Assembly (NCBI GenBank): GCA_021158465.1
Contig: JAGGUN010000019.1
Location: forward strand, 82,796-146,795
DNA from: a bacterium
GTDB lineage: Bacteria > UBP14 > UBA6098 > 4484-93
DNA: 64,000 nucleotides
Direction: 5' to 3'
Below are positions 31,173-41,716 of the stretch, in pieces. The first letter of the stretch is position 1, and every line of letters starts with the position of its first letter. The notes beneath the pieces are model-generated. The model did not search any database. It was not told where the DNA came from and was given only the letters and a program-made list of their open reading frames with translations. A program made the position numbers and the translations under genes.

Positions 31173-32411
31173 TCACTTTATAAATGTTACCTTCTCAGAA
31201 GCGGTTCTGTTTCCCAATGTTGCCTTGACAATATATACCCCCGATGGAACTGACTTCGCTGGTCTCCAAACAGCTTCTGTCCTGTTCAAACTCCACTGAA
31301 CCTCCTGCAATTCTATCCTCTCGCCTTTTATGTTGAATATTTCAACATGGATTTCCCCGCGGGTTTGGTGGGGAGTATCGACCGAGATATAGCAGGCGGA
31401 GTTGAACGGGTTTGGGTACATCGAAATCGAGATTTGATCAGGGTGCAAGACCGCCGTCTCCTCCACCGGTGAGTGTCCCTCGATCGGGAGCCAGGCTACT
31501 ACCCATTCACTCGTTACCTCAAGATCGTCCAGTAGGACCCACTCGTCTGGCTCACTCTCATACAGATTTGGTATATAGAAGAAACCGTTGCTTCCGTAGA
31601 AAAACTCCGCTGTTCCAAACCATGGTGTATCGTTACAGGCATCTCCTGTCATCATATACCAGAAGGGTCTGCGGTGCGATGAGCCAAACTCTGTTACATC
31701 CGAGACATCTGCCCTTGCCTGAATATCTTCCATAGTACCAAGCGAACCCGTGAACATTGTTGCTTGCAGGTATATAAATATCTCCGCCTCACCTCTGTCT
31801 CCATAGTAGAGTGAATCTCCTGTTATCTCGTTACAGATGCCGATGTAGAATGTGGTGAATGTTGAATCACGGAGCCATAGCGTGTCCTGCCTCATCGACT
31901 TGAATTCGTATACTGTACCTCTTCCACCCTCAGCTTTCCTCCTCAGATGATGAATTTCCCCATCTGGATAGAATACAGGAGCGGTATTGGCATAGTTTGG
32001 TGGGATGCTGCCGTATCCTGGTATCCCGGGGCGATACTCTCCGACCGTCCCGGGAACGATTGTGCAGTGATGCTCTCTGGCGAGGATTGATATCGTATCG
32101 AGAATCGCCGCTATTCTCTCCCCGTATTCCCCAACAGGAACCCAGGATACATCTCCCATAGCGCCGAAAAACTCGACATAGGTGGTGAAACTGTACCCTG
32201 CGTTGACCATAAGTCCAAACTCTGGGGCTATTACCATATCGCAGTCCGGATGTTCCATAAGAACTGCTTTTATCCGCTCAAATATACCGTCCATTGCTGG
32301 GTAACTCCCCATCCACCGAACGGATGCAATCTTCACACTACCAGGAAGGTTGACTGAATGGAGAGAGATAATGGCGAGCGACAGAACAGTTTCTATGATC
32401 TTATGCGTCAT
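31173..32411 (-). CDS. Secreted protein with an N-terminal carbon-nitrogen hydrolase-like domain and a T9SS type-A C-terminal sorting domain.
   Basis: Possible Glu-Lys-Cys triad context (DMVIAPEFG ... K ... YIGICNEITGD) with spacing similar to the nitrilase superfamily. This is a low-confidence call. The C-terminal tail (MYPNPFNSACYISVD...IFNIKGERI...SGVYIVKATLGNRTASEKVTFIK) matches the Por secretion tail pattern. Confidence 0.55.
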   Translation of the reverse strand: MTHKIIETVLSLAIISLHSVNLPGSVKIASVRWMGSYPAMDGIFERIKAVLMEHPDCDMVIAPEFGLMVNAGYSFTTYVEFFGAMGDVSWVPVGEYGERIAAILDTISILAREHHCTIVPGTVGEYRPGIPGYGSIPPNYANTAPVFYPDGEIHHLRRKAEGGRGTVYEFKSMRQDTLWLRDSTFTTFYIGICNEITGDSLYYGDRGEAEIFIYLQATMFTGSLGTMEDIQARADVSDVTEFGSSHRRPFWYMMTGDACNDTPWFGTAEFFYGSNGFFYIPNLYESEPDEWVLLDDLEVTSEWVVAWLPIEGHSPVEETAVLHPDQISISMYPNPFNSACYISVDTPHQTRGEIHVEIFNIKGERIELQEVQWSLNRTEAVWRPAKSVPSGVYIVKATLGNRTASEKVTFIK

Positions 32412-34999: not shown

Positions 35000-35129
35000 G
35001 CAAGTGATATAGCAGAGTTACTGCATTCACAAAGGTTTGAAGGCTTATGAACTTGCTCATCTTGCTCAATCTTCAGCTGGTTATATTACTGATAGTGAAT
35101 AGGCAAAAACTCGACATTTCCTTTTTCGG

Positions 35130-35157
35130 TTGCTAATCGACTATTTTTGAATATATA
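35130..35157 (+). promoter_or_regulatory. Candidate sigma-70-type promoter (TTGCTA, 16-nt spacer, TATATA) for the tRNA-Arg gene.
   Basis: TTGCTA at 35130-35135 and TATATA at 35152-35157. The tRNA 5' end at 35168 is about 10 nt downstream of the -10 element. Confidence 0.35.
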
Positions 35158-35163
35158 TAAACT

Positions 35164-37842
35164 ATGTGCGGCAGTGGCTCAATGGATAGAGCGGCAGATT
35201 CCGGATCTGCAGGTTGGAGGTTCAAGTCCTCTCTGCCGCACATCCTTCCCCTTGTTGTTCTCCTTTTCTCTTGCTTTACGGTCTATGCCGGCAAACCTGA
35301 ACCGGGCAAGATCGGTGTCATAGCGTACATCCTACCAAGACCGGACTATGACTCGCTTCAGGGGCAAACCCCATCCCGGATAATATCGCATCTTAAGCAA
35401 CTTGCTTCATCCTCGCAGGCGCAGGTCATCAGCTTCCTCCAGCAAAGAAGTGAAGAGGTTGACACCTTTATCTCCTTATGGACGATAAATGCAATATACA
35501 TTATGACCACACAGGATGTCGTCAGTGCGCTTGCCGAGAGAGAAGATATAGAGAAGATTGTGCCCGACCGTGAGCGGAGGCTTGGTGAGCCTATCTTGTC
35601 TGATGCGAAGGATGCCTGGGACAATATCGGTGCAATCCGGGCTGACGAGGTTCACTCGGAGCTCGGCATCGATGGCACGGGTGTTATAATCGGCAGTATG
35701 GATTCTGGCGTCGACGGCTTTCATCCGGATCTTGAGGGGAATTTTCTTGGTAATGTCGAGCCTGGAAGGGTTGCTTGGTTTGACCCGACAGATGAGTACC
35801 CGCTCTATCCACAGGACGGACACGGACACGGGACGCATACGATGGGGACGGTCTGTGGACAGGGTGGAACAGGTGTTGCTCCAGGCGCACTCTGGATGGC
35901 GGTGAAGATATTCAGGGACAACTCGACATCGAGGGACTTTATCATACATTCTGGCTTCCAGTTCATCGCTGACCCGGATGACAACGCCTATACGGATGAT
36001 TTCCCGAGGCTTGTTAATAACTCTTGGGGCGAGCTCTTCTGCCGTGAAGGGATGCTATACTACGATGATGTCAGATTGTGGCGGCTCCTGGGTATAATAC
36101 CCGTTTTTGCCATTGGGAATGATGGACCGGAGGCATCCTCGACAACTCCTCCAGGGAACTACCCGAATGTCATATCAACAGGAGCAACGGACGCTTCGAA
36201 CAACATCGCATATTTCTCAAGCCGTGGACCTGCGCCTTCAGGCTCCCCATGGTTCGGAGCAACAAAACCGGACTTCTCAGCGCCGGGTGTTGGCATTCTA
36301 TCAACTGAGGCTGGGACAGGTGGCTACACTCTGATGAGCGGAACGAGCATGGCATCCCCGCATATAGCGGGCACCATCGCACTTATGCTTTCTGCCAACC
36401 CGACACTCGATTACGATGATGTCTACCGTATCCTGTCGGAAACCTCAGTGGACATAGCCGATCCAGGAATGGATAATATCTCTGGCTATGGTCTGGTCGA
36501 TGCGTACCGGGCGGTTCAACTTGCTATAGAAATGCGAGCACCGAGAATATACCATACTCCAATCACTGACAGAGAATCCGCCAATGTGACATTTGTGGCA
36601 ACAGTTGTTTCACCAACATCGCCTCTGGATACATCGTCGGTTGCGCTTATTCTGACATTTAGCGGGATACCAGACACCATCCCGTTCATACCCTCAGGTG
36701 ATTCGTTTTTCTGTGAGGTTTCGTTTCCTGGCGAGGGGGATGTCCAGTATTTTATACAGGCAGCAGACTCATTGGGTAGATTGGGTTGCCTCCCAAAATC
36801 TGCTCCTGATTCTGTCTTTTCGTTTCACATTGGAAGAGACTCAATCCCTCCTATCATAGAGTTCACGCCTATAGACTCCGTGCTATCCTATCTCATGTTT
36901 CCGCAGGACATCTCGGTTGAGGTAAGCGACAACGGGGAGATAGATAGTGTCTGGATTGAGCTGACAGATGAAGCGGGAACGAGAAGTATCCCTCTCGAGT
37001 ACGACCCACTGTGGGGGGTATATTCTGGAGAGATTGATTTAGAGCCGATTGGTGAGTTTTTCTACAGGATTGTAGCTATGGACAGAGCCTCAAATCTGTC
37101 CAGCTATCCACCAGATTGGGACAGTCTCCGCGTTGAGGTAGTTGACGATGGCACAATTGATCTTCTGTGGAGCACAGTAACGGAGATACCCGATTTTATT
37201 CCACCGTATTATGATCAGGAGACATGGAGCGTATTGGAGGTTCCCTGGCACTGTCGGGTCGAGTCAGTAAAAACGAGGGTTCATCTTACTTATCCGAGGA
37301 TGAGGAATATTGTGGCTGTACTCTACTCACCATCCGGCACAGAGGTATATCTCCACAACAGGGCATCACTTACCGACAGTGTGAACATCTGGTATCCGGA
37401 CGACAGGAGCGAGGATGGTCCGGGCTCTCTTTCAGATTTTACTTACGAGGATGCAGCGGGTGTATGGTATCTATATGTCGCAGATAGAAACGAGATGTAT
37501 CATGGCTACTATGGGACGCTTTTTGAGTGGGAGCTTATGCTGTTCTGCTCATCTATTGCAGAGGTGGAAGAAAAAAGTGCTCTGCCTGGGAGGTTTAAGC
37601 TTTCCGCCTATCCGAACCCGTTCAATTCGACAACCAAAATTTTATACAGCATACCTGAAACCGAGAAGAAGGCGGTTATTGAAATTTACAACATATTGGG
37701 AGAAAAGGTAGATAGCTTCTGCGCTGAACCAGGGCTGCACACCATCCTCTGGGATACAAAGAAACTTCCATCGGGAGTCTACCTCTGCCTGCTGAAGGGG
37801 AAGACTACCTCCGCATCTTTGAAGCTCTCACTTTTGAGGTGA
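35164..37842 (+). CDS. Secreted subtilisin-like S8 serine protease with an N-terminal propeptide and a T9SS type-A C-terminal sorting domain. The only in-frame start codons lie within or just before the tRNA-Arg gene.
   Basis: Catalytic triad contexts: Asp (IGSMDSGVDGFHPDL), His (HGHGTHTMGTV), Ser (GTSMASPHIAGTIAL). Inhibitor_I9-like propeptide. C-terminal tail LSAYPNPFNSTTKILY...EIYNILGEKV...SGVYLCLLKGKTTSASLKLSLLR. The predicted signal peptide is MDRAADSGSAGWRFKSSLPHILPLVVLLFSCFTVYA. Confidence 0.8.
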   Translation: MCGSGSMDRAADSGSAGWRFKSSLPHILPLVVLLFSCFTVYAGKPEPGKIGVIAYILPRPDYDSLQGQTPSRIISHLKQLASSSQAQVISFLQQRSEEVDTFISLWTINAIYIMTTQDVVSALAEREDIEKIVPDRERRLGEPILSDAKDAWDNIGAIRADEVHSELGIDGTGVIIGSMDSGVDGFHPDLEGNFLGNVEPGRVAWFDPTDEYPLYPQDGHGHGTHTMGTVCGQGGTGVAPGALWMAVKIFRDNSTSRDFIIHSGFQFIADPDDNAYTDDFPRLVNNSWGELFCREGMLYYDDVRLWRLLGIIPVFAIGNDGPEASSTTPPGNYPNVISTGATDASNNIAYFSSRGPAPSGSPWFGATKPDFSAPGVGILSTEAGTGGYTLMSGTSMASPHIAGTIALMLSANPTLDYDDVYRILSETSVDIADPGMDNISGYGLVDAYRAVQLAIEMRAPRIYHTPITDRESANVTFVATVVSPTSPLDTSSVALILTFSGIPDTIPFIPSGDSFFCEVSFPGEGDVQYFIQAADSLGRLGCLPKSAPDSVFSFHIGRDSIPPIIEFTPIDSVLSYLMFPQDISVEVSDNGEIDSVWIELTDEAGTRSIPLEYDPLWGVYSGEIDLEPIGEFFYRIVAMDRASNLSSYPPDWDSLRVEVVDDGTIDLLWSTVTEIPDFIPPYYDQETWSVLEVPWHCRVESVKTRVHLTYPRMRNIVAVLYSPSGTEVYLHNRASLTDSVNIWYPDDRSEDGPGSLSDFTYEDAAGVWYLYVADRNEMYHGYYGTLFEWELMLFCSSIAEVEEKSALPGRFKLSAYPNPFNSTTKILYSIPETEKKAVIEIYNILGEKVDSFCAEPGLHTILWDTKKLPSGVYLCLLKGKTTSASLKLSLLR
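35168..35240 (+). tRNA. tRNA-Arg, anticodon CCG.
   Basis: A cloverleaf folded by hand. Acceptor stem GCGGCAG/CTGCCGC. D-arm GCTC-AATGGATA-GAGC. Anticodon stem GCAGA/TCTGC with loop TTCCGGA (U33, anticodon CCG, purine 37). Variable loop AGGTT. T-arm GGAGG-TTCAAGT-CCTCT. Discriminator A. CCA is not encoded. Length 73 nt. Confidence 0.85.
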
Positions 37843-38107
37843 CCTTCCTTGTTGTATGTTTCGTTTTCCTTGATGGAACACCCTTCTTTCTTGTTCTGCT
37901 CTTCTTTTCTATGCGGTCGTTTATACCGTTCCTGTCTTTATCGATGAAGTAGTCGAATAACCTGATAGAGGAGCTGGGTTTCTTCTTTTCGACCTTCTCT
38001 TGCTCCACTTCCGTTGTATCCCTGTCGCCTTTTTGCTCGCCCGCCGATGCAGAAGCAAATAATAGCACAAGTGTACTCACCACGATCGGTATCAGATACC
38101 TTCTCAT
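37805..38107 (-). CDS. Small (100 aa) secreted protein with a polybasic Lys/Arg/Ser/Thr-rich tail and an EF-hand-like DKDRNGINDRIE motif.
   Basis: Signal peptide MRRYLIPIVVSTLVLLFASASA. RBS on the minus strand (AAGGAGAGGGAGA). C-terminus KKSRTRKKGVPSRKTKHTTRKVTSKVRASKMRR. Its 3' end overlaps the convergent protease gene by 38 nt. Confidence 0.45.
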   Translation of the reverse strand: MRRYLIPIVVSTLVLLFASASAGEQKGDRDTTEVEQEKVEKKKPSSSIRLFDYFIDKDRNGINDRIEKKSRTRKKGVPSRKTKHTTRKVTSKVRASKMRR

Positions 38108-38108
38108 C

Positions 38109-39014
38109 TTATCTCCCTCTCCTTATCAGTTTCACACGGGTTGAACTTCCCCGAGCAGCTGTTGCTCTGAAGGAACCTTTGCTTGAGTATCCTATCGACG
38201 ACCTCTTGGTGATAGGACCCTTTGAAGGGTTCTTGCTTTTGATCTTGGTGGATTTGACCTCTTTATCATCCTTCCTCAGAAAAAACAAATTCTGTCTTCC
38301 CTTTTCAGGAATTTTTTTCTCCTTGGAACGCTCCGTCAGGGATTTCTTATTTCTCTCCAAGCCGATTGGTGAGTTTTTTCTCCTTCTCAGTGTTGTCGAG
38401 TTATCCTTTTTATGTTTCTTCCTTGTGCTGTTTTCCGTGGAGGTTTTCTCTATTATCTTCGCTACGCTTCCTGTACTTTTGCTCTTTGGCAGTATCTTTC
38501 TACCACCGACGGCACTGGCGACCTGCGTTACAGAGGAAGCAACCCTGCTTCCTGTATATCTTTTGACTTCGGCACTTCTATATTTCGCTGGTAAAAGCGA
38601 TGTCGATTCCCCCGGTTCCCTGAACAGCCCTCTTCTCCTCGTTATCCGGTATCCCGAGGTGGTGTAGCTGCCTCGATATCTGACCGGAGGTGGTTCATAG
38701 TAATAAGGGTAATAAGGATAATAATAGGGTGGGGAAGGGGGAGGCAGGTACCAGAGGAGAACTACCGGATGCCAGAAGCATCGGCAGTGCCAGCAGTAGG
38801 TGTCCAACCACCAATGGTCACAGCAAAGATGCCAACAACAGCAATCATCCCACCACCAGTCACAGCAGCAACAACAGCAGTCGTCAACAACAATGTCCGG
38901 TGGATCGGCAATGACCACACGGGAATGTGTTCTAAGCACTGTTTGGCAGCCGGAAAGTATGAGGGCAAAAACTACTACTGCACCGACCGCCATTATACCT
39001 TTATAATATCTCAT
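38109..39014 (-). CDS. Lipoprotein of 301 aa with an extreme Cys/Trp-rich tract, a Pro/Tyr-rich tract and a polybasic tail of about 200 aa predicted to be disordered.
   Basis: Strong RBS (AAGGAGGG, then 5 nt, then ATG). Lipobox MRYYKGIMAVGAVVVFALILSGC. The tract DDCCCCCCDWWWDDCCCWHLCCDHWWLDTYCWHCRCFWHP has 14 Cys and 6 Trp in 40 residues. This is followed by YLPPPSPPYYYPYYPYYYEPPP and then a Lys/Arg/Ser/Thr-rich C-terminal half. The start overlaps the upstream gene's stop by 14 nt. Confidence 0.5.
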   Translation of the reverse strand: MRYYKGIMAVGAVVVFALILSGCQTVLRTHSRVVIADPPDIVVDDCCCCCCDWWWDDCCCWHLCCDHWWLDTYCWHCRCFWHPVVLLWYLPPPSPPYYYPYYPYYYEPPPVRYRGSYTTSGYRITRRRGLFREPGESTSLLPAKYRSAEVKRYTGSRVASSVTQVASAVGGRKILPKSKSTGSVAKIIEKTSTENSTRKKHKKDNSTTLRRRKNSPIGLERNKKSLTERSKEKKIPEKGRQNLFFLRKDDKEVKSTKIKSKNPSKGPITKRSSIGYSSKGSFRATAARGSSTRVKLIRRGR

Positions 39015-40029: not shown

Positions 40030-40395
40030 ATTTATCTTTTAACGGCAAAAGGTGGTTTCTCTGCTGCACATTGGGTAAGAGGGTACCCGGGGAAATGCTC
40101 TCACCTACACGGACATAACTGGCAGGTTCAGCTAACCGTTAGGGTAGATGAGCTGGATTCACTCGGTATGGGGATCGACTTCTCCGAGCTAAAGGGCATC
40201 CTGAAGGAGATAACCGACCTTTTAGACCACACCTGCTTGAACGAGCTTCCGTTTTTTTCGGAGACGAACCCGACAGCCGAGAACATCGCAAGGTTTCTAT
40301 TCTACGAGGCAAAAAAGAGGCTCCCAAATGGTGTTAAACCCTATGAGCTGAAGCTCTGCGAGAGCGATAACAGCTGGATAACATACAGGGAGTAA
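40030..40395 (+). CDS. queD: 6-carboxy-5,6,7,8-tetrahydropterin synthase (QueD). No ATG, GTG or TTG start codon is available upstream of the conserved N-terminus, so the start is tentatively placed at an ATT codon.
   Basis: The in-frame translation upstream of the listed ATG at 40168 reads ...IYLLTAKGGFSAAHWVRGYPGKCSHLHGHNWQVQLTVRVDELDSLGMGIDFSELK. This carries the QueD zinc-binding Cys-x-His-Gly-His motif and the F-x-AAH motif. An in-frame TAA stop sits at 39979-39981. The RBS AAGGAGGGGG ends about 8 nt before ATT at 40030. Confidence 0.7.
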   Translation: MYLLTAKGGFSAAHWVRGYPGKCSHLHGHNWQVQLTVRVDELDSLGMGIDFSELKGILKEITDLLDHTCLNELPFFSETNPTAENIARFLFYEAKKRLPNGVKPYELKLCESDNSWITYRE

Positions 40396-41033
40396 TGCTC
40401 ATAAGCGAGATTTACAAGAGTATAAACGGTGAGGGAAGGTTCGCAGGCTTTCCAACCTCGATTGTGAGAGTAGCAGGTTGCAATCTTAGATGTTCCTGGT
40501 GCGATACAACCTATGCCTTAACAGGTGGAGAAAGGGTTTCTCTCGATGAAATAATGAGCAAGATACGGGAGTTCAACACCCGTCGTGTTCTCATAACCGG
40601 TGGTGAGCCTCTTCTACAAGAGGAAACCTATGAACTTGCAATGAGGCTACTTAAGGCAGGCTACCACACGCTTGTTGAGACAAACGGCTCGCTTCCGATA
40701 AACACACTCACCGAGGGGATTTTCCGGTGCGTCGATATAAAGACACCGTCATCGGGCGAGTCTGGAAAGAATCTGCTCGAGAATATAGAGTACCTCCTCC
40801 GTACCGACGATGTGAAGTTTGTTATAGCAGATAAGCACGATTTTGACTGGAGCCTCGATTTTACAAGAAGTTTCGACCTTACATCGAGGTGTGATGTACT
40901 CTTTTCTCCTGTCTGGGGCAAGCTCTCTCCTGATGTACTTGCCAGATGGATACTTGACTCCGGTATGGACATAAGGTTAAACCTCCAACTCCACAAACTC
41001 ATCTGGAAGGACAGGGAGGAGGGGATAAGGTGA
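40395..41033 (+). CDS. queE: 7-carboxy-7-deazaguanine synthase (QueE), radical SAM enzyme.
   Basis: Radical SAM cluster motif VRVAGCNLRCSWCDTTYA. Length about 210 aa. Sits between queD and queC with overlapping stop and start codons. Confidence 0.9.
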   Translation: MLISEIYKSINGEGRFAGFPTSIVRVAGCNLRCSWCDTTYALTGGERVSLDEIMSKIREFNTRRVLITGGEPLLQEETYELAMRLLKAGYHTLVETNGSLPINTLTEGIFRCVDIKTPSSGESGKNLLENIEYLLRTDDVKFVIADKHDFDWSLDFTRSFDLTSRCDVLFSPVWGKLSPDVLARWILDSGMDIRLNLQLHKLIWKDREEGIR

Positions 41034-41677
41034 AGGCTATTATTCTTCTTTCTGGTGGGCTGGACAGCACAACGACGCTTGCTGTCGCAATTGACAGAGG
41101 ATTCGAGATACTGCCGCTGCACTTAAACTATCGACACCGAGCGGAAAAGAAGGAGCTTGAGGCTTTCGATGCAATCCTCAACCACTACGGCATAGAAAGA
41201 AGGCTCGTCGTGGAGCTACCTTTCTTTTCCCGGTTTGAAAAGAGGGGGCTTGTCAACCCGGAGCTTGACCTGTCGGCTGAAAGCTATAACGATTCTCGCC
41301 TCTCATACCTCCCGTTCCGGAACGGTGTGATGCTCGCCATAGCTACAGCTGTTGCCGAGGAGGAAGAAGCGGAGGCAATATTTACAGGTGTTATGGAGGA
41401 GGATTCGTCCGGCTACCCCGACTGCCGTGAGAAGTTTATTCAAGACTTCCAGAAAGCGATAAGCTCAGGAACAAAAAAGGGAAACATAACGGTTATAACC
41501 CCTATCATTCACATGAAGAAGAGCGAGGTGGTGCTTCTGGGTAAAAGACTTGGTGTCCCGTTTCATCTTACCTGGTCCTGCTATGAGGGTGGTGAAAGCC
41601 CCTGTGGAAGGTGTGCAAGCTGTCTTCTGAGAAGGTCTGCATTTGAAGAGGCTGGCGTGAATGACCCGCTCATTTAA
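41030..41677 (+). CDS. queC: 7-cyano-7-deazaguanine synthase (QueC).
   Basis: PP-loop motif MKAIILLSGGLDSTT. C-terminal zinc-binding motif CGRCASCLLR. Confidence 0.9.
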   Translation: MKAIILLSGGLDSTTTLAVAIDRGFEILPLHLNYRHRAEKKELEAFDAILNHYGIERRLVVELPFFSRFEKRGLVNPELDLSAESYNDSRLSYLPFRNGVMLAIATAVAEEEEAEAIFTGVMEEDSSGYPDCREKFIQDFQKAISSGTKKGNITVITPIIHMKKSEVVLLGKRLGVPFHLTWSCYEGGESPCGRCASCLLRRSAFEEAGVNDPLI

Positions 41678-41716
41678 TTTTGCCGTTTTGACAAAAATTT
41701 TGCCATTTTGACAAAA
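41677..41716 (+). repeat. Tandem direct repeat, two copies of 20 bp (AATTTTGCCGTTTTGACAAA and AATTTTGCCATTTTGACAAA). Each copy contains TTGACA. It begins at the queC stop codon, upstream of the CheY-like regulator and htrA. Candidate regulatory site.
   Basis: Read directly from the sequence. Two adjacent 20-mers differ at one position. Confidence 0.6.

Follow-up and report, generated by a model that had tools for sequence, protein, structure and literature searches.

A tRNA-Arg(CCG) gene nested in the 5′ end of a secreted subtilase reading frame of an uncultivated Zixibacteria lineage

Organisation of the locus

The protease reading frame described here (35164-37842, + strand, 892 codons) belongs to an uncultivated Zixibacteria lineage and is located in a stretch of 64,000 nucleotides that was analysed as a whole and is called the window below. 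The predicted product carries a peptidase S8 catalytic domain, a P-domain and a T9SS sorting domain (Table 1), and its domain composition is that of secreted S8 subtilases with T9SS sorting. The I9-like propeptide was recognised by a BLASTP match (E = 1e-17) to the N-terminal prodomain of homologue P0035 (Pfam Inhibitor_I9), and its dN/dS ratio is 0.20-0.24 between the two lineages in which the gene was found. T9SS cargo proteins undergo prior Sec export and need an N-terminal signal peptide; the T9SS tail of the protease thus implies Sec export, for which a signal peptide is required.

A whole tRNA gene lies within codons 2-26 of this frame, on the same strand. It was called by ARAGORN as tRNA-Arg(CCG) at 35168-35241 and was matched by the Rfam model RF00005 at 35168-35240 over the full model (positions 1-71) with 69.3 bits and E = 7e-14, the gathering threshold being 29 bits. 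The minimum-free-energy fold is a cloverleaf (-32.3 kcal/mol, z = -2.9) with a 7-bp acceptor and D, anticodon and T arms, as in canonical tRNAs. The preliminary description of this DNA, made from the sequence alone, had placed a canonical 73-nt tRNA-Arg inside the first 26 subtilase codons and proposed tRNAscan-SE or ARAGORN as a check; ARAGORN was run, with Rfam as the second program, and both agree with it. The spacer upstream of the tRNA is 164 nt long, and the intergenic spacers of this genome are of ordinary size. Enrichment of CGG codons in the protease, as a link to the tRNA, was not notable (6 of 38 Arg codons compared with 55 of 534 elsewhere).

Table 1. Positions of the features discussed (numbering of the window)
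Feature	Position	Strand	Basis or remark
Promoter-like block upstream of the tRNA	35123..35163	+	About 45 nt common to both lineages
In-frame TAA closing the protease frame upstream	35158..35160	+	Also in lineage B
First in-frame ATG, codon 1, candidate start, possibly leaderless	35164..35166	+	Kept in L001, L005 and L006
tRNA-Arg(CCG) gene, 73 nt, no encoded CCA	35168..35240	+	ARAGORN, Rfam, cloverleaf fold
Second in-frame ATG, codon 7, candidate start, in the tRNA D-loop (A15-U16-G18)	35182..35184	+	
Non-canonical candidate starts: CTG 35233 (codon 24, 3′ acceptor strand) and ATC 35242 (codon 27, first past the tRNA)	35233..35244	+	
Signal-peptide hydrophobic core and cleavage region (ILPLVVLLFSCFTVYAG)	35242..35292	+	Hydropathy, homologue alignment
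I9-like propeptide, codons 50-170	35311..35673	+	BLASTP, multiple alignment
ATG of codon 114, NCBI/JGI start	35503..35505	+	P0001 and P0121, 779 aa
Peptidase S8 catalytic domain	35674..36492	+	Pfam PF00082 (Peptidase_S8), E = 2e-48
Proprotein-convertase P-domain	37258..37539	+	Pfam PF01483 (P_proprotein), E = 6e-10
T9SS C-terminal sorting domain	37609..37818	+	Pfam PF18962 (Por_Secre_tail), E = 1e-8

The promoter-like block contains a -35-like TTGCTA at 35130-35135 and a TA-repeat with a -10-like TATATA at 35152-35157 or 35154-35159. Beyond this block the upstream sequences of the two lineages are unrelated, and in the second lineage (lineage B) the block is duplicated before an inserted 116-aa ORF. 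A scan for consensus sigma-70 promoters did not call the block at 35123..35163, because the hexamer has no T at position 6. The geometry of the block suggests a transcription start at 35164-35166. The Bacteroidetes-type promoter motif TAnnTTTG occurs once here, at 35142-35149, but it is not enriched across the window (26 copies observed, 29.8 expected) and is of no use for locating the transcription start. No terminator-like site was found between the tRNA and the protease ORF, and the two are presumably co-transcribed.

Conservation of the junction

The same tRNA-protease junction is present in at least seven independent contigs, which come from at least five samples and represent two lineages. 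An identical junction occurs in L002-L004 (two JGI samples), and a diverged one in L001 (Logan SRR21418560), L005 (NCBI NATO01000002.1) and L006 (JGI Ga0164318). The second lineage, Zixibacteria bacterium 4484_93, shares 87% amino-acid identity with the first, at a dS of about 0.6 and with no indels in 892 codons. At this divergence, the junction, the frame and the start codons are common to both lineages. An assembly error, named earlier as a possible source of the arrangement, is not what is seen, as the junction recurs in independent assemblies. The comparison rests on these two lineages, the next relatives being too distant.

The tRNA differs between the lineages by two substitutions in 73 nt, as compared with the dS of about 0.6 at neighbouring synonymous sites. 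Both substitutions are at unpaired positions (position 26, at 35193, and the variable loop, at 35214), which is consistent with the tRNA evolving as a structured RNA, although the power of two events is weak. Codons 1-26 differ by three substitutions, all synonymous, two of them being those in the tRNA; with n = 3, this suggests a dual constraint on these codons. Beyond the tRNA, codons 27-113 have a dN/dS of 0.225 in the protease frame (Fisher p = 2e-6), compared with 0.81 and 2.2 in the other frames, which contain stops. Codons 27-43 align with the signal-peptide cores of homologues and codons 45-161 with their I9 prodomain, and protein-level selection reaches up to the tRNA boundary. The dN/dS of the whole gene is 0.11, and this value, together with the absence of indels, excludes a pseudogene.

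The protein search returned just two clusters above 45% identity, all members coming from the two lineages and having identical tRNA-derived codons. A further ortholog search gave one locus in genome contigs (L005) and one in metagenome contigs (L006); more distant orthologues were not found in the protein, genome-contig and metagenome-contig databases searched. Past the tRNA, the sole diverged orthologue possesses no start codon of its own; a codon of this kind would have spoken against the original account. The upstream gene, yjeF/nnr, has next relatives that are about 50% identical. In these relatives other genes come after yjeF and leave no space for an adjoining tRNA; in L007 and L010 the gene directly after it encodes a T9SS protein. 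These loci are uninformative on the ancestral locus.

Signal peptide

Codon 27 (35242), one or two bases past the tRNA 3′ end, is the first of the hydrophobic core ILPLVVLLFSCFTVYA, which places the core right where the preliminary description had seen it. The Kyte-Doolittle maximum comprises residues 27-31. In the core region (35242..35292), every substitution relative to lineage B replaces one hydrophobic residue with another, and LLFSCF and AGK are invariant; the signal-peptide codons adjoining the tRNA, with a dN of 0.25, are much less conserved than the tRNA. Either a VYA|G-type cleavage site or an LLFSC lipobox-like motif is present and conserved. A charged n-region is present only if translation starts within the tRNA. 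Such an n-region would comprise 20-26 residues and exceed the MKR/MRR-type n-regions of homologues and neighbours in length; the homologues start just about 3-10 residues before the core (e.g. MKR...). A twin-arginine signal was ruled out, there being a single R only, in WRFK.

Candidate start codons

A codon scan leaves the same two in-frame starts upstream, ATG 35164 and ATG 35182, as had been recognised at the outset, and in four diverged or variant sequences codons 1 and 7 are the sole canonical in-frame starts before codon 114. No in-frame ATG, GTG or TTG occurs between 35182 and 35503, an interval that includes the 87 codons (27-113) past the tRNA; given the codon usage of the gene, the probability of such a run is about 0.026. 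The earlier claim of a long stretch without a canonical start after the tRNA is thus borne out, but the next start is codon 114 and not residue 118 or so.

The first ATG precedes the mature tRNA 5′ end by 4 nt. The ENA and Logan gene callers start at ATG 35182 in P0002, P0124 and P0125. Neither AUG has a Shine-Dalgarno sequence, which many genes in the window possess. Once the tRNA has folded, both AUGs would be buried. In the nascent 37-nt RNA, AUG 35164 is predicted to be unpaired and AUG 35182 to be in a loop; in the full precursor the former is paired with the trailer ACAU.

The frame-specific selection on codons 27-113 and their alignment with signal peptides and prodomains mean that the translation start must be at or before codon 27 and that the database start M114 is wrong. 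It is probable, judging from these comparisons, that translation begins at a tRNA-borne AUG on the unprocessed cotranscript and that the 3′ part of the tRNA serves as the n-region of the signal peptide. As no other canonical start lies upstream of the selected codons, we infer that ribosomes pass through the tRNA sequence.

Alternative explanations

One alternative is a non-canonical start at the tRNA 3′ edge. The candidates are CUG 35233, with the T-stem GGAGG (35216-35220) as its Shine-Dalgarno sequence, and AUC 35242; in that case 0-9 nt of the tRNA would be coding, and no tRNA-derived n-region would be made. Both codons are kept in the two lineages, the genome uses GGAGG-type Shine-Dalgarno sequences, and the resulting N-terminus would have a homologue-like length. 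However, the conservation of CTG is explained by the tRNA acceptor stem, and a single Ile codon is uninformative. The GGAGG is 12 nt from CTG and 21 nt from ATC, as compared with about 4-8 nt at other genes in the window. Two further points speak against an edge start: in the bacteria studied so far, CUG and AUC initiate weakly, and the signal peptide produced (MPHILPLVV... or MLPLVV...) would lack Lys and Arg in the n-region. An edge start is therefore considered unlikely. Still less likely is that the sequence is no longer a working tRNA-Arg(CCG), its role being taken by a copy elsewhere, and is kept as a structured 5′ coding or leader element, so that no real competition with tRNA maturation would exist. 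A second tRNA-Arg(CCG) copy is possible, 64 kb of the genome being visible, and the conservation could stem partly from the coding constraint. Against this stand the full-model Rfam score of 69 bits, the perfect cloverleaf, the avoidance of paired positions by both substitutions, and a conservation much stronger than that of the adjoining signal-peptide codons (dN 0.25); a tRNA this good would be an RNase P substrate regardless.

The remaining two explanations place the anomaly in the annotation or in the history of the locus. If the annotation were right, the protein would start at M114 (35503), or the gene would be a decaying remnant, and the open frame over the tRNA would be accidental. The NCBI and JGI product is indeed the 779-aa form; ORFs are commonly extended over tRNAs by mistake in annotation, and this tRNA is open in two of its three frames. 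But codons 27-113 are under the frame-specific purifying selection given above and align with homologous signal peptides and prodomains, M114 falls within the I9-like domain, and a product starting there would have a T9SS tail but no signal peptide. The M114 start is strongly disfavoured by these data, and the explanation as a whole is very improbable. The arrangement resembles a spurious ORF extension in that ORF callers blind to tRNAs reach the first upstream ATG (the 886-aa and 892-aa calls of ENA/Logan); it differs in that here the downstream start is contradicted by selection and homology, and either the extension or a start at the tRNA edge is required. The protease might also be cargo of an island integrated at the tRNA 3′ end, or the junction an assembly chimera. 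Two points favour an island: tRNA 3′ ends are classical integration sites, and close orthologues of the protease are confined to the two lineages. However, the 22-nt tRNA 3′ end has no second match in the 64 kb with up to 3 mismatches allowed, and no GC shift or compositional island was seen across the region. Pfam scans of the larger ORFs sampled at about 23.2-46.9 kb gave housekeeping families or no match and no integrase or mobile-element genes, in accordance with the initial remark that no integrase is nearby. With no att-like repeat in the 64 kb, no integrase among the sampled ORFs and flat GC, the integrated-island hypothesis was rejected, and the same junction in independent assemblies of two lineages argues against a chimera; the probability left to this explanation is very low.

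Proposed mechanism and origin

According to the preferred reading, in which translation starts at an AUG borne by the tRNA, the tRNA-Arg(CCG) gene and the subtilase 5′ end would be one dual-use sequence. The conserved block upstream would act as the promoter and give a transcript starting within a few bases of 35164 and running through the tRNA into the protease ORF. This transcript may have two fates. In one, the cloverleaf would fold, RNase P would cut before 35168 and a 3′ endonuclease such as RNase Z, proposed because no CCA is encoded, would cut after 35240, yielding tRNA-Arg and a beheaded protease mRNA without a start codon. In the other, a ribosome would load co-transcriptionally on AUG 35164 or 35182, before the 3′ acceptor strand exists. 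Loading at 35164 would take place on a leaderless or very short-leader RNA, whereas AUG 35182 lies in the 8-nt D-loop. The ribosome would then traverse the tRNA sequence to produce the pre-pro-protease, the tRNA-derived codons (...SAGWRFKSSLPH) forming the positively charged n-region of the Sec signal peptide and the core following from the first post-tRNA codon. tRNA maturation and protease translation would be mutually exclusive on any one transcript. That a working tRNA doubles as the initiation region and the n-region, each transcript becoming tRNA or mRNA and never both, has about an even chance of being correct.

The arrangement probably arose when, in an ancestor common to both lineages, a protease gene that had lost its own ATG and short n-region was fused to the tRNA 3′ end by a deletion or rearrangement. 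The preliminary description had offered two readings, initiation of the protease inside a tRNA gene and replacement of its native start and n-region by tRNA-derived codons. The evidence fits both together: the second is supported as the origin and the first as the present state, in which a tRNA-borne AUG would be used.

Comparison with known systems

The locus has the features of a nested tRNA, namely same-strand containment and an arrangement kept in diverged relatives (two lineages). In Alphaproteobacteria, selC (tRNA-Sec) is nested in the selB ORF, according to a bioinformatic prediction, and a competition between tRNA folding or processing and translation of the full-length protein has been proposed for selB-selC (Mukai 2021, PMC8124441). 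Both cases concern an entire, apparently functional tRNA in a same-strand bacterial ORF, kept across lineages. In selB-selC, however, the two genes are linked in function, and the tRNA is at the 3′ end, where all that it contributes is a C-terminal extension that can be dispensed with. In the protease locus the tRNA occupies the 5′ end. It would encode the start codon and a part of the signal peptide that the protein needs, no functional link between tRNA and protease is evident, and processing would prevent translation altogether and not just shorten the product. Full-text literature searches gave no bacterial start codon within a tRNA gene, and only the selB-selC report is comparable; as far as could be found, no bacterial start codon in or on a tRNA gene has been described before, and this one would be the first.

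A tRNA-Lys inside cox1 of the Armadillidium vulgare mitochondrion is mentioned as a cited example in PMC8124441. As in such animal mitochondrial overlaps, the tRNA is fully in the coding region in direct orientation, and processing of one product would destroy the other. Those overlaps, however, belong to organelle genomes with extreme compaction and the punctuation model, whereas the intergenic spacers here are ordinary. The E. coli thrU-tyrU-glyT-thrT-tufB operon is a bacterial tRNA-mRNA cotranscript, and dicistronic tRNA-mRNA transcripts are described in plants (PMC8166872). The resemblance to such cotranscripts would be in one promoter, a tRNA followed by a protein gene, and separation by RNase P and 3′ nucleases; but in these, translation of the ORF begins past the tRNA, from a ribosome-binding site and start codon of its own, and here no such start exists for 87 codons.

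If the proposed mechanism is true, two unrelated constraints, those of a cloverleaf and of a signal-peptide n-region, act at once on the same 73 bases, and the level of expression would depend on how fast ribosomes load co-transcriptionally relative to the folding and processing of the tRNA. The locus would offer a natural example of competition between RNase P/Z processing and ribosome loading over the same 80 nucleotides. It would also extend bacterial nested tRNAs, of which selB-selC, at the 3′ end, is the single reported class, to the 5′ end, with all-or-none consequences. The bans on CDS-tRNA overlap in the NCBI and JGI pipelines silently trim the protease by 113 residues, removing the signal peptide and half of the prodomain, and similar trimmed genes may be hidden elsewhere.

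tRNA gene and protease reading frame

The only tRNA found by ARAGORN in the 64-kb window, a tRNA-Arg(CCG), lies inside the 5′ end of the ORF of an S8 subtilase on the same strand, as the preliminary description had proposed. Its sequence is a full-length match to the Rfam tRNA model (69.3 bits, E = 7e-14; gathering score 29), folds into a cloverleaf (−32.3 kcal/mol, z = −2.9) and has no encoded 3′ CCA. Three domains are encoded in the 892-codon ORF: Peptidase_S8 (E = 2e-48), the proprotein-convertase P-domain and a C-terminal sorting domain of the T9SS type. A frame scan agreed that only two in-frame ATG codons precede a long start-free run, and the next start, placed earlier at about residue 118, was located at codon 114. 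Under the codon usage of this gene, a run of 87 codons without ATG, GTG or TTG has a p of ~0.026. The hydrophobic core ILPLVVLLFSCFTVYA begins immediately 3′ of the tRNA, as first described.

Features of the tRNA-protease locus and its surroundings (window positions)
Feature	Position	Strand	Remark
T9SS-tail protein	31173-32411	-	near yjeF
-35-like TTGCTA	35130-35135	+	within conserved block 35123-35163
TA repeat TATATA	35152-35157 or 35154-35159	+	within conserved block 35123-35163
In-frame stop TAA	35158	+	protease reading frame
First in-frame ATG	35164	+	codon 1, 4 nt 5′ of tRNA
Protease ORF	35164-37842	+	892 codons
tRNA-Arg(CCG), ARAGORN	35168-35241	+	
tRNA, Rfam match	35168-35240	+	
Second in-frame ATG	35182	+	codon 7, D-loop of tRNA
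Candidate start CUG	35233	+	non-canonical
Candidate start AUC	35242	+	non-canonical
First residue of hydrophobic core	35242	+	codon 27
Next in-frame ATG/GTG/TTG	35503	+	ATG, codon 114
100-aa ORF	37805-38107	-	convergent, overlaps last 38 nt of protease
301-aa ORF	38109-39014	-	
Queuosine precursor genes	~40100-41700		2-4 kb downstream of the locus

Recurrence of the junction

The protein search revealed only two close clusters, represented by P0001 (100% identical, 779 aa) and P0002 (87% identical, 886 aa, start called at the D-loop ATG). The same tRNA-ORF fusion is present on all contigs encoding them, namely L002-L004 (two JGI samples) and L001 (Logan run SRR21418560). Scanning species-representative genomes added a P0002-type locus (L005) in ‘candidate division Zixibacteria bacterium 4484_93’, a metagenome scan added one further copy (L006), and proteins of 886 and 892 aa sharing the N-terminus are called on additional ENA contigs. 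In every assembly with the junction, codons 1 and 7 are the only canonical in-frame starts upstream of codon 114, so no copy has an independent canonical start between the tRNA and that codon. Neither the protease nor the synteny was found in farther relatives. The annotations of the start differ: NCBI and JGI use Met codon 114 (M114; P0001, P0121), avoiding the tRNA, and the ENA and Logan gene calls (P0002, P0122, P0124, P0125) begin at M7 (886 aa) or at M1 (892 aa).

Selection and homology downstream of the tRNA

The ORFs of the window and of L001, which belongs to a diverged lineage (lineage B), align over 892 codons with zero indels (overall dS 0.61, dN/dS 0.11), all comparisons of this kind resting on two lineages. 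In codons 27-113, which separate the tRNA from the annotated start, 26 synonymous differences on 61 sites and 26 non-synonymous differences on 200 sites give a dN/dS of 0.225 (dS 0.63, Fisher p = 2e-6), the same as in the following 57 codons (0.238); the two other frames of this stretch give 0.81 and 2.2, with 3 and 6 stops. All replacements in codons 27-49 are hydrophobic to hydrophobic (L/V, P/A, V/I, V/I, V/L, Y/F), and LLFSCF and AGK are unchanged. As separate evidence, subtilases of ~40% identity align through their signal-peptide cores (for instance MKRTLLIVILLIVLSCTVFGA and MKRLSFTILALILSCFVTSSVAG) with codons 27-43 and through their I9-type propeptide with codons 45-161; the matched part of P0035 (BLASTP, E = 1e-17) is Pfam Inhibitor_I9. 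The stretch just 3′ of the tRNA is, judging by these patterns, translated. M114 falls in the middle of the prodomain, and a product starting there would carry a T9SS tail without a signal peptide. The T9SS tail requires earlier Sec export. Selection, homology, the position of M114 and the unaccompanied tail together indicate that the NCBI and JGI start is wrong, and that the N-terminus must, on the same sequence evidence, be encoded at or 5′ of codon 27.

Transcription context and RNA folding

The lineages share a conserved stretch of ~45 nt directly 5′ of the tRNA (35123-35163), beyond which their upstream sequences are unrelated. Lineage B has a ~560-bp insertion between yjeF and the tRNA (L001 470-940; also L005 4310-4780, and L006), composed of a second 45-bp promoter-like block, ~25 nt of degenerate sequence from the tRNA 5′ part and then a 116-aa ORF with a GTG start and GGAGG 7 nt upstream. 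A Pfam search with this ORF gave no match. The insertion resembles a duplication of the promoter and tRNA 5′ part through which a small gene was captured or created, and the duplicated block fits a promoter module. The TTGCTA and TATATA elements would place the +1 at ~35164-35166, on or just past the first ATG. A consensus promoter scan did not call the block, and a Bacteroidetes-type motif reading of it is equally unproven. No terminator-like site was detected in the tRNA-ORF interval.

When only 37 nt of the RNA have been transcribed, the predicted fold leaves the ten 5′-terminal bases, AUG 35164 among them, single-stranded and places AUG 35182 in the 8-nt D-loop. After synthesis of the 3′ strand, the leader AUGU (35164-35167) pairs with the discriminator and trailer ACAU (35240-35243), which lengthens the acceptor stem by 4 bp (−37.6 vs −32.3 kcal/mol); in lineage B, a C to T change preserves this pairing through a G-U pair. 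Maturation of the 3′ end of a tRNA without an encoded CCA requires endonucleolytic cleavage 3′ of the discriminator, which here would detach the ORF from any tRNA-borne start codon.

Interpretation of the locus

It is rather probable that the tRNA and the protease 5′ end are one sequence with two uses. Ribosomes would initiate at a tRNA-borne AUG on unprocessed cotranscripts and translate through the tRNA; processing would yield a tRNA for the cell and behead the protease message. From either AUG, a signal peptide with a tRNA-derived n-region is predicted (...SAGWRFKSSLPH), with R and K immediately ahead of the core. Only two substitutions separate the tRNAs of the lineages: G to A at position 26 (35193) and, in L001, T to C in the variable loop (35214). 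Each lies at an unpaired tRNA site and is a synonymous third-position change in the protease frame, as is C to T at 35241; these three substitutions match what dual constraint predicts, a number too small for proof. The arrangement likely arose when, in an ancestor, the protease lost its own ATG and short n-region and had them replaced through a deletion or fusion. The convergent 100-aa ORF, a local comparator, has an ordinary signal peptide (MRRYLIPIVVSTLVLLFASASA), n-regions here normally having 3-4 residues.

Initiation at the non-canonical CUG or AUC is unlikely: the GGAGG of the T-stem lies 12 and 21 nt upstream, respectively, against ~4-8 nt at window genes with GGAGG-type Shine-Dalgarno sequences, and the signal peptide would have no Lys or Arg. 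That the tRNA is a non-working copy kept as an mRNA element appears quite improbable. A true start at M114, or a decaying gene, is very hard to reconcile with the constraint on codons 27-113 and their signal-peptide and prodomain homology. A genomic island or an assembly artefact is barely conceivable. The tRNA 3′ end has no repeat in the 64 kb, the GC content is flat, the ORFs sampled at ~23.2-46.9 kb include no integrase, as had been noted for the vicinity, and at least seven independent assemblies, from the two lineages, share the junction. On these grounds the island reading is rejected.

The only comparable bacterial report found in the literature is that of Mukai 2021 (PMC8124441), where a tRNA-Sec gene is predicted to be nested in the 3′ end of selB. 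Here, in contrast, the tRNA is at the 5′ end, would contribute the start codon together with a functional segment of the signal peptide, and has no evident functional relationship with the protein. Mitochondrial tRNA overlaps and the usual tRNA-mRNA operons resemble the present case less closely.

Neighbouring genes

The 301-aa ORF, for which the JGI copies of the locus have a gene call, is striking for its Cys/Trp/Tyr/Pro-rich N-terminal half (CCCCCCDWWWDDCCCWHLCC..., YYYPYYPYYYEPPP); its C-terminal half is rich in Lys, Ser and Arg. It gave no match in Pfam. Several other T9SS-tail proteins are encoded around yjeF, in the window and in relatives (L007 6577-8076, L010 6586-8076). In ~50%-identical relatives, a T9SS-tail protein with no S8 domain match directly follows yjeF, leaving no room for a tRNA. 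The queuosine precursor genes comprise a PTPS/QueD-like call (JGI copy), a radical-SAM QueE-like gene and QueC; their proximity to the tRNA-protease locus is probably a coincidence.
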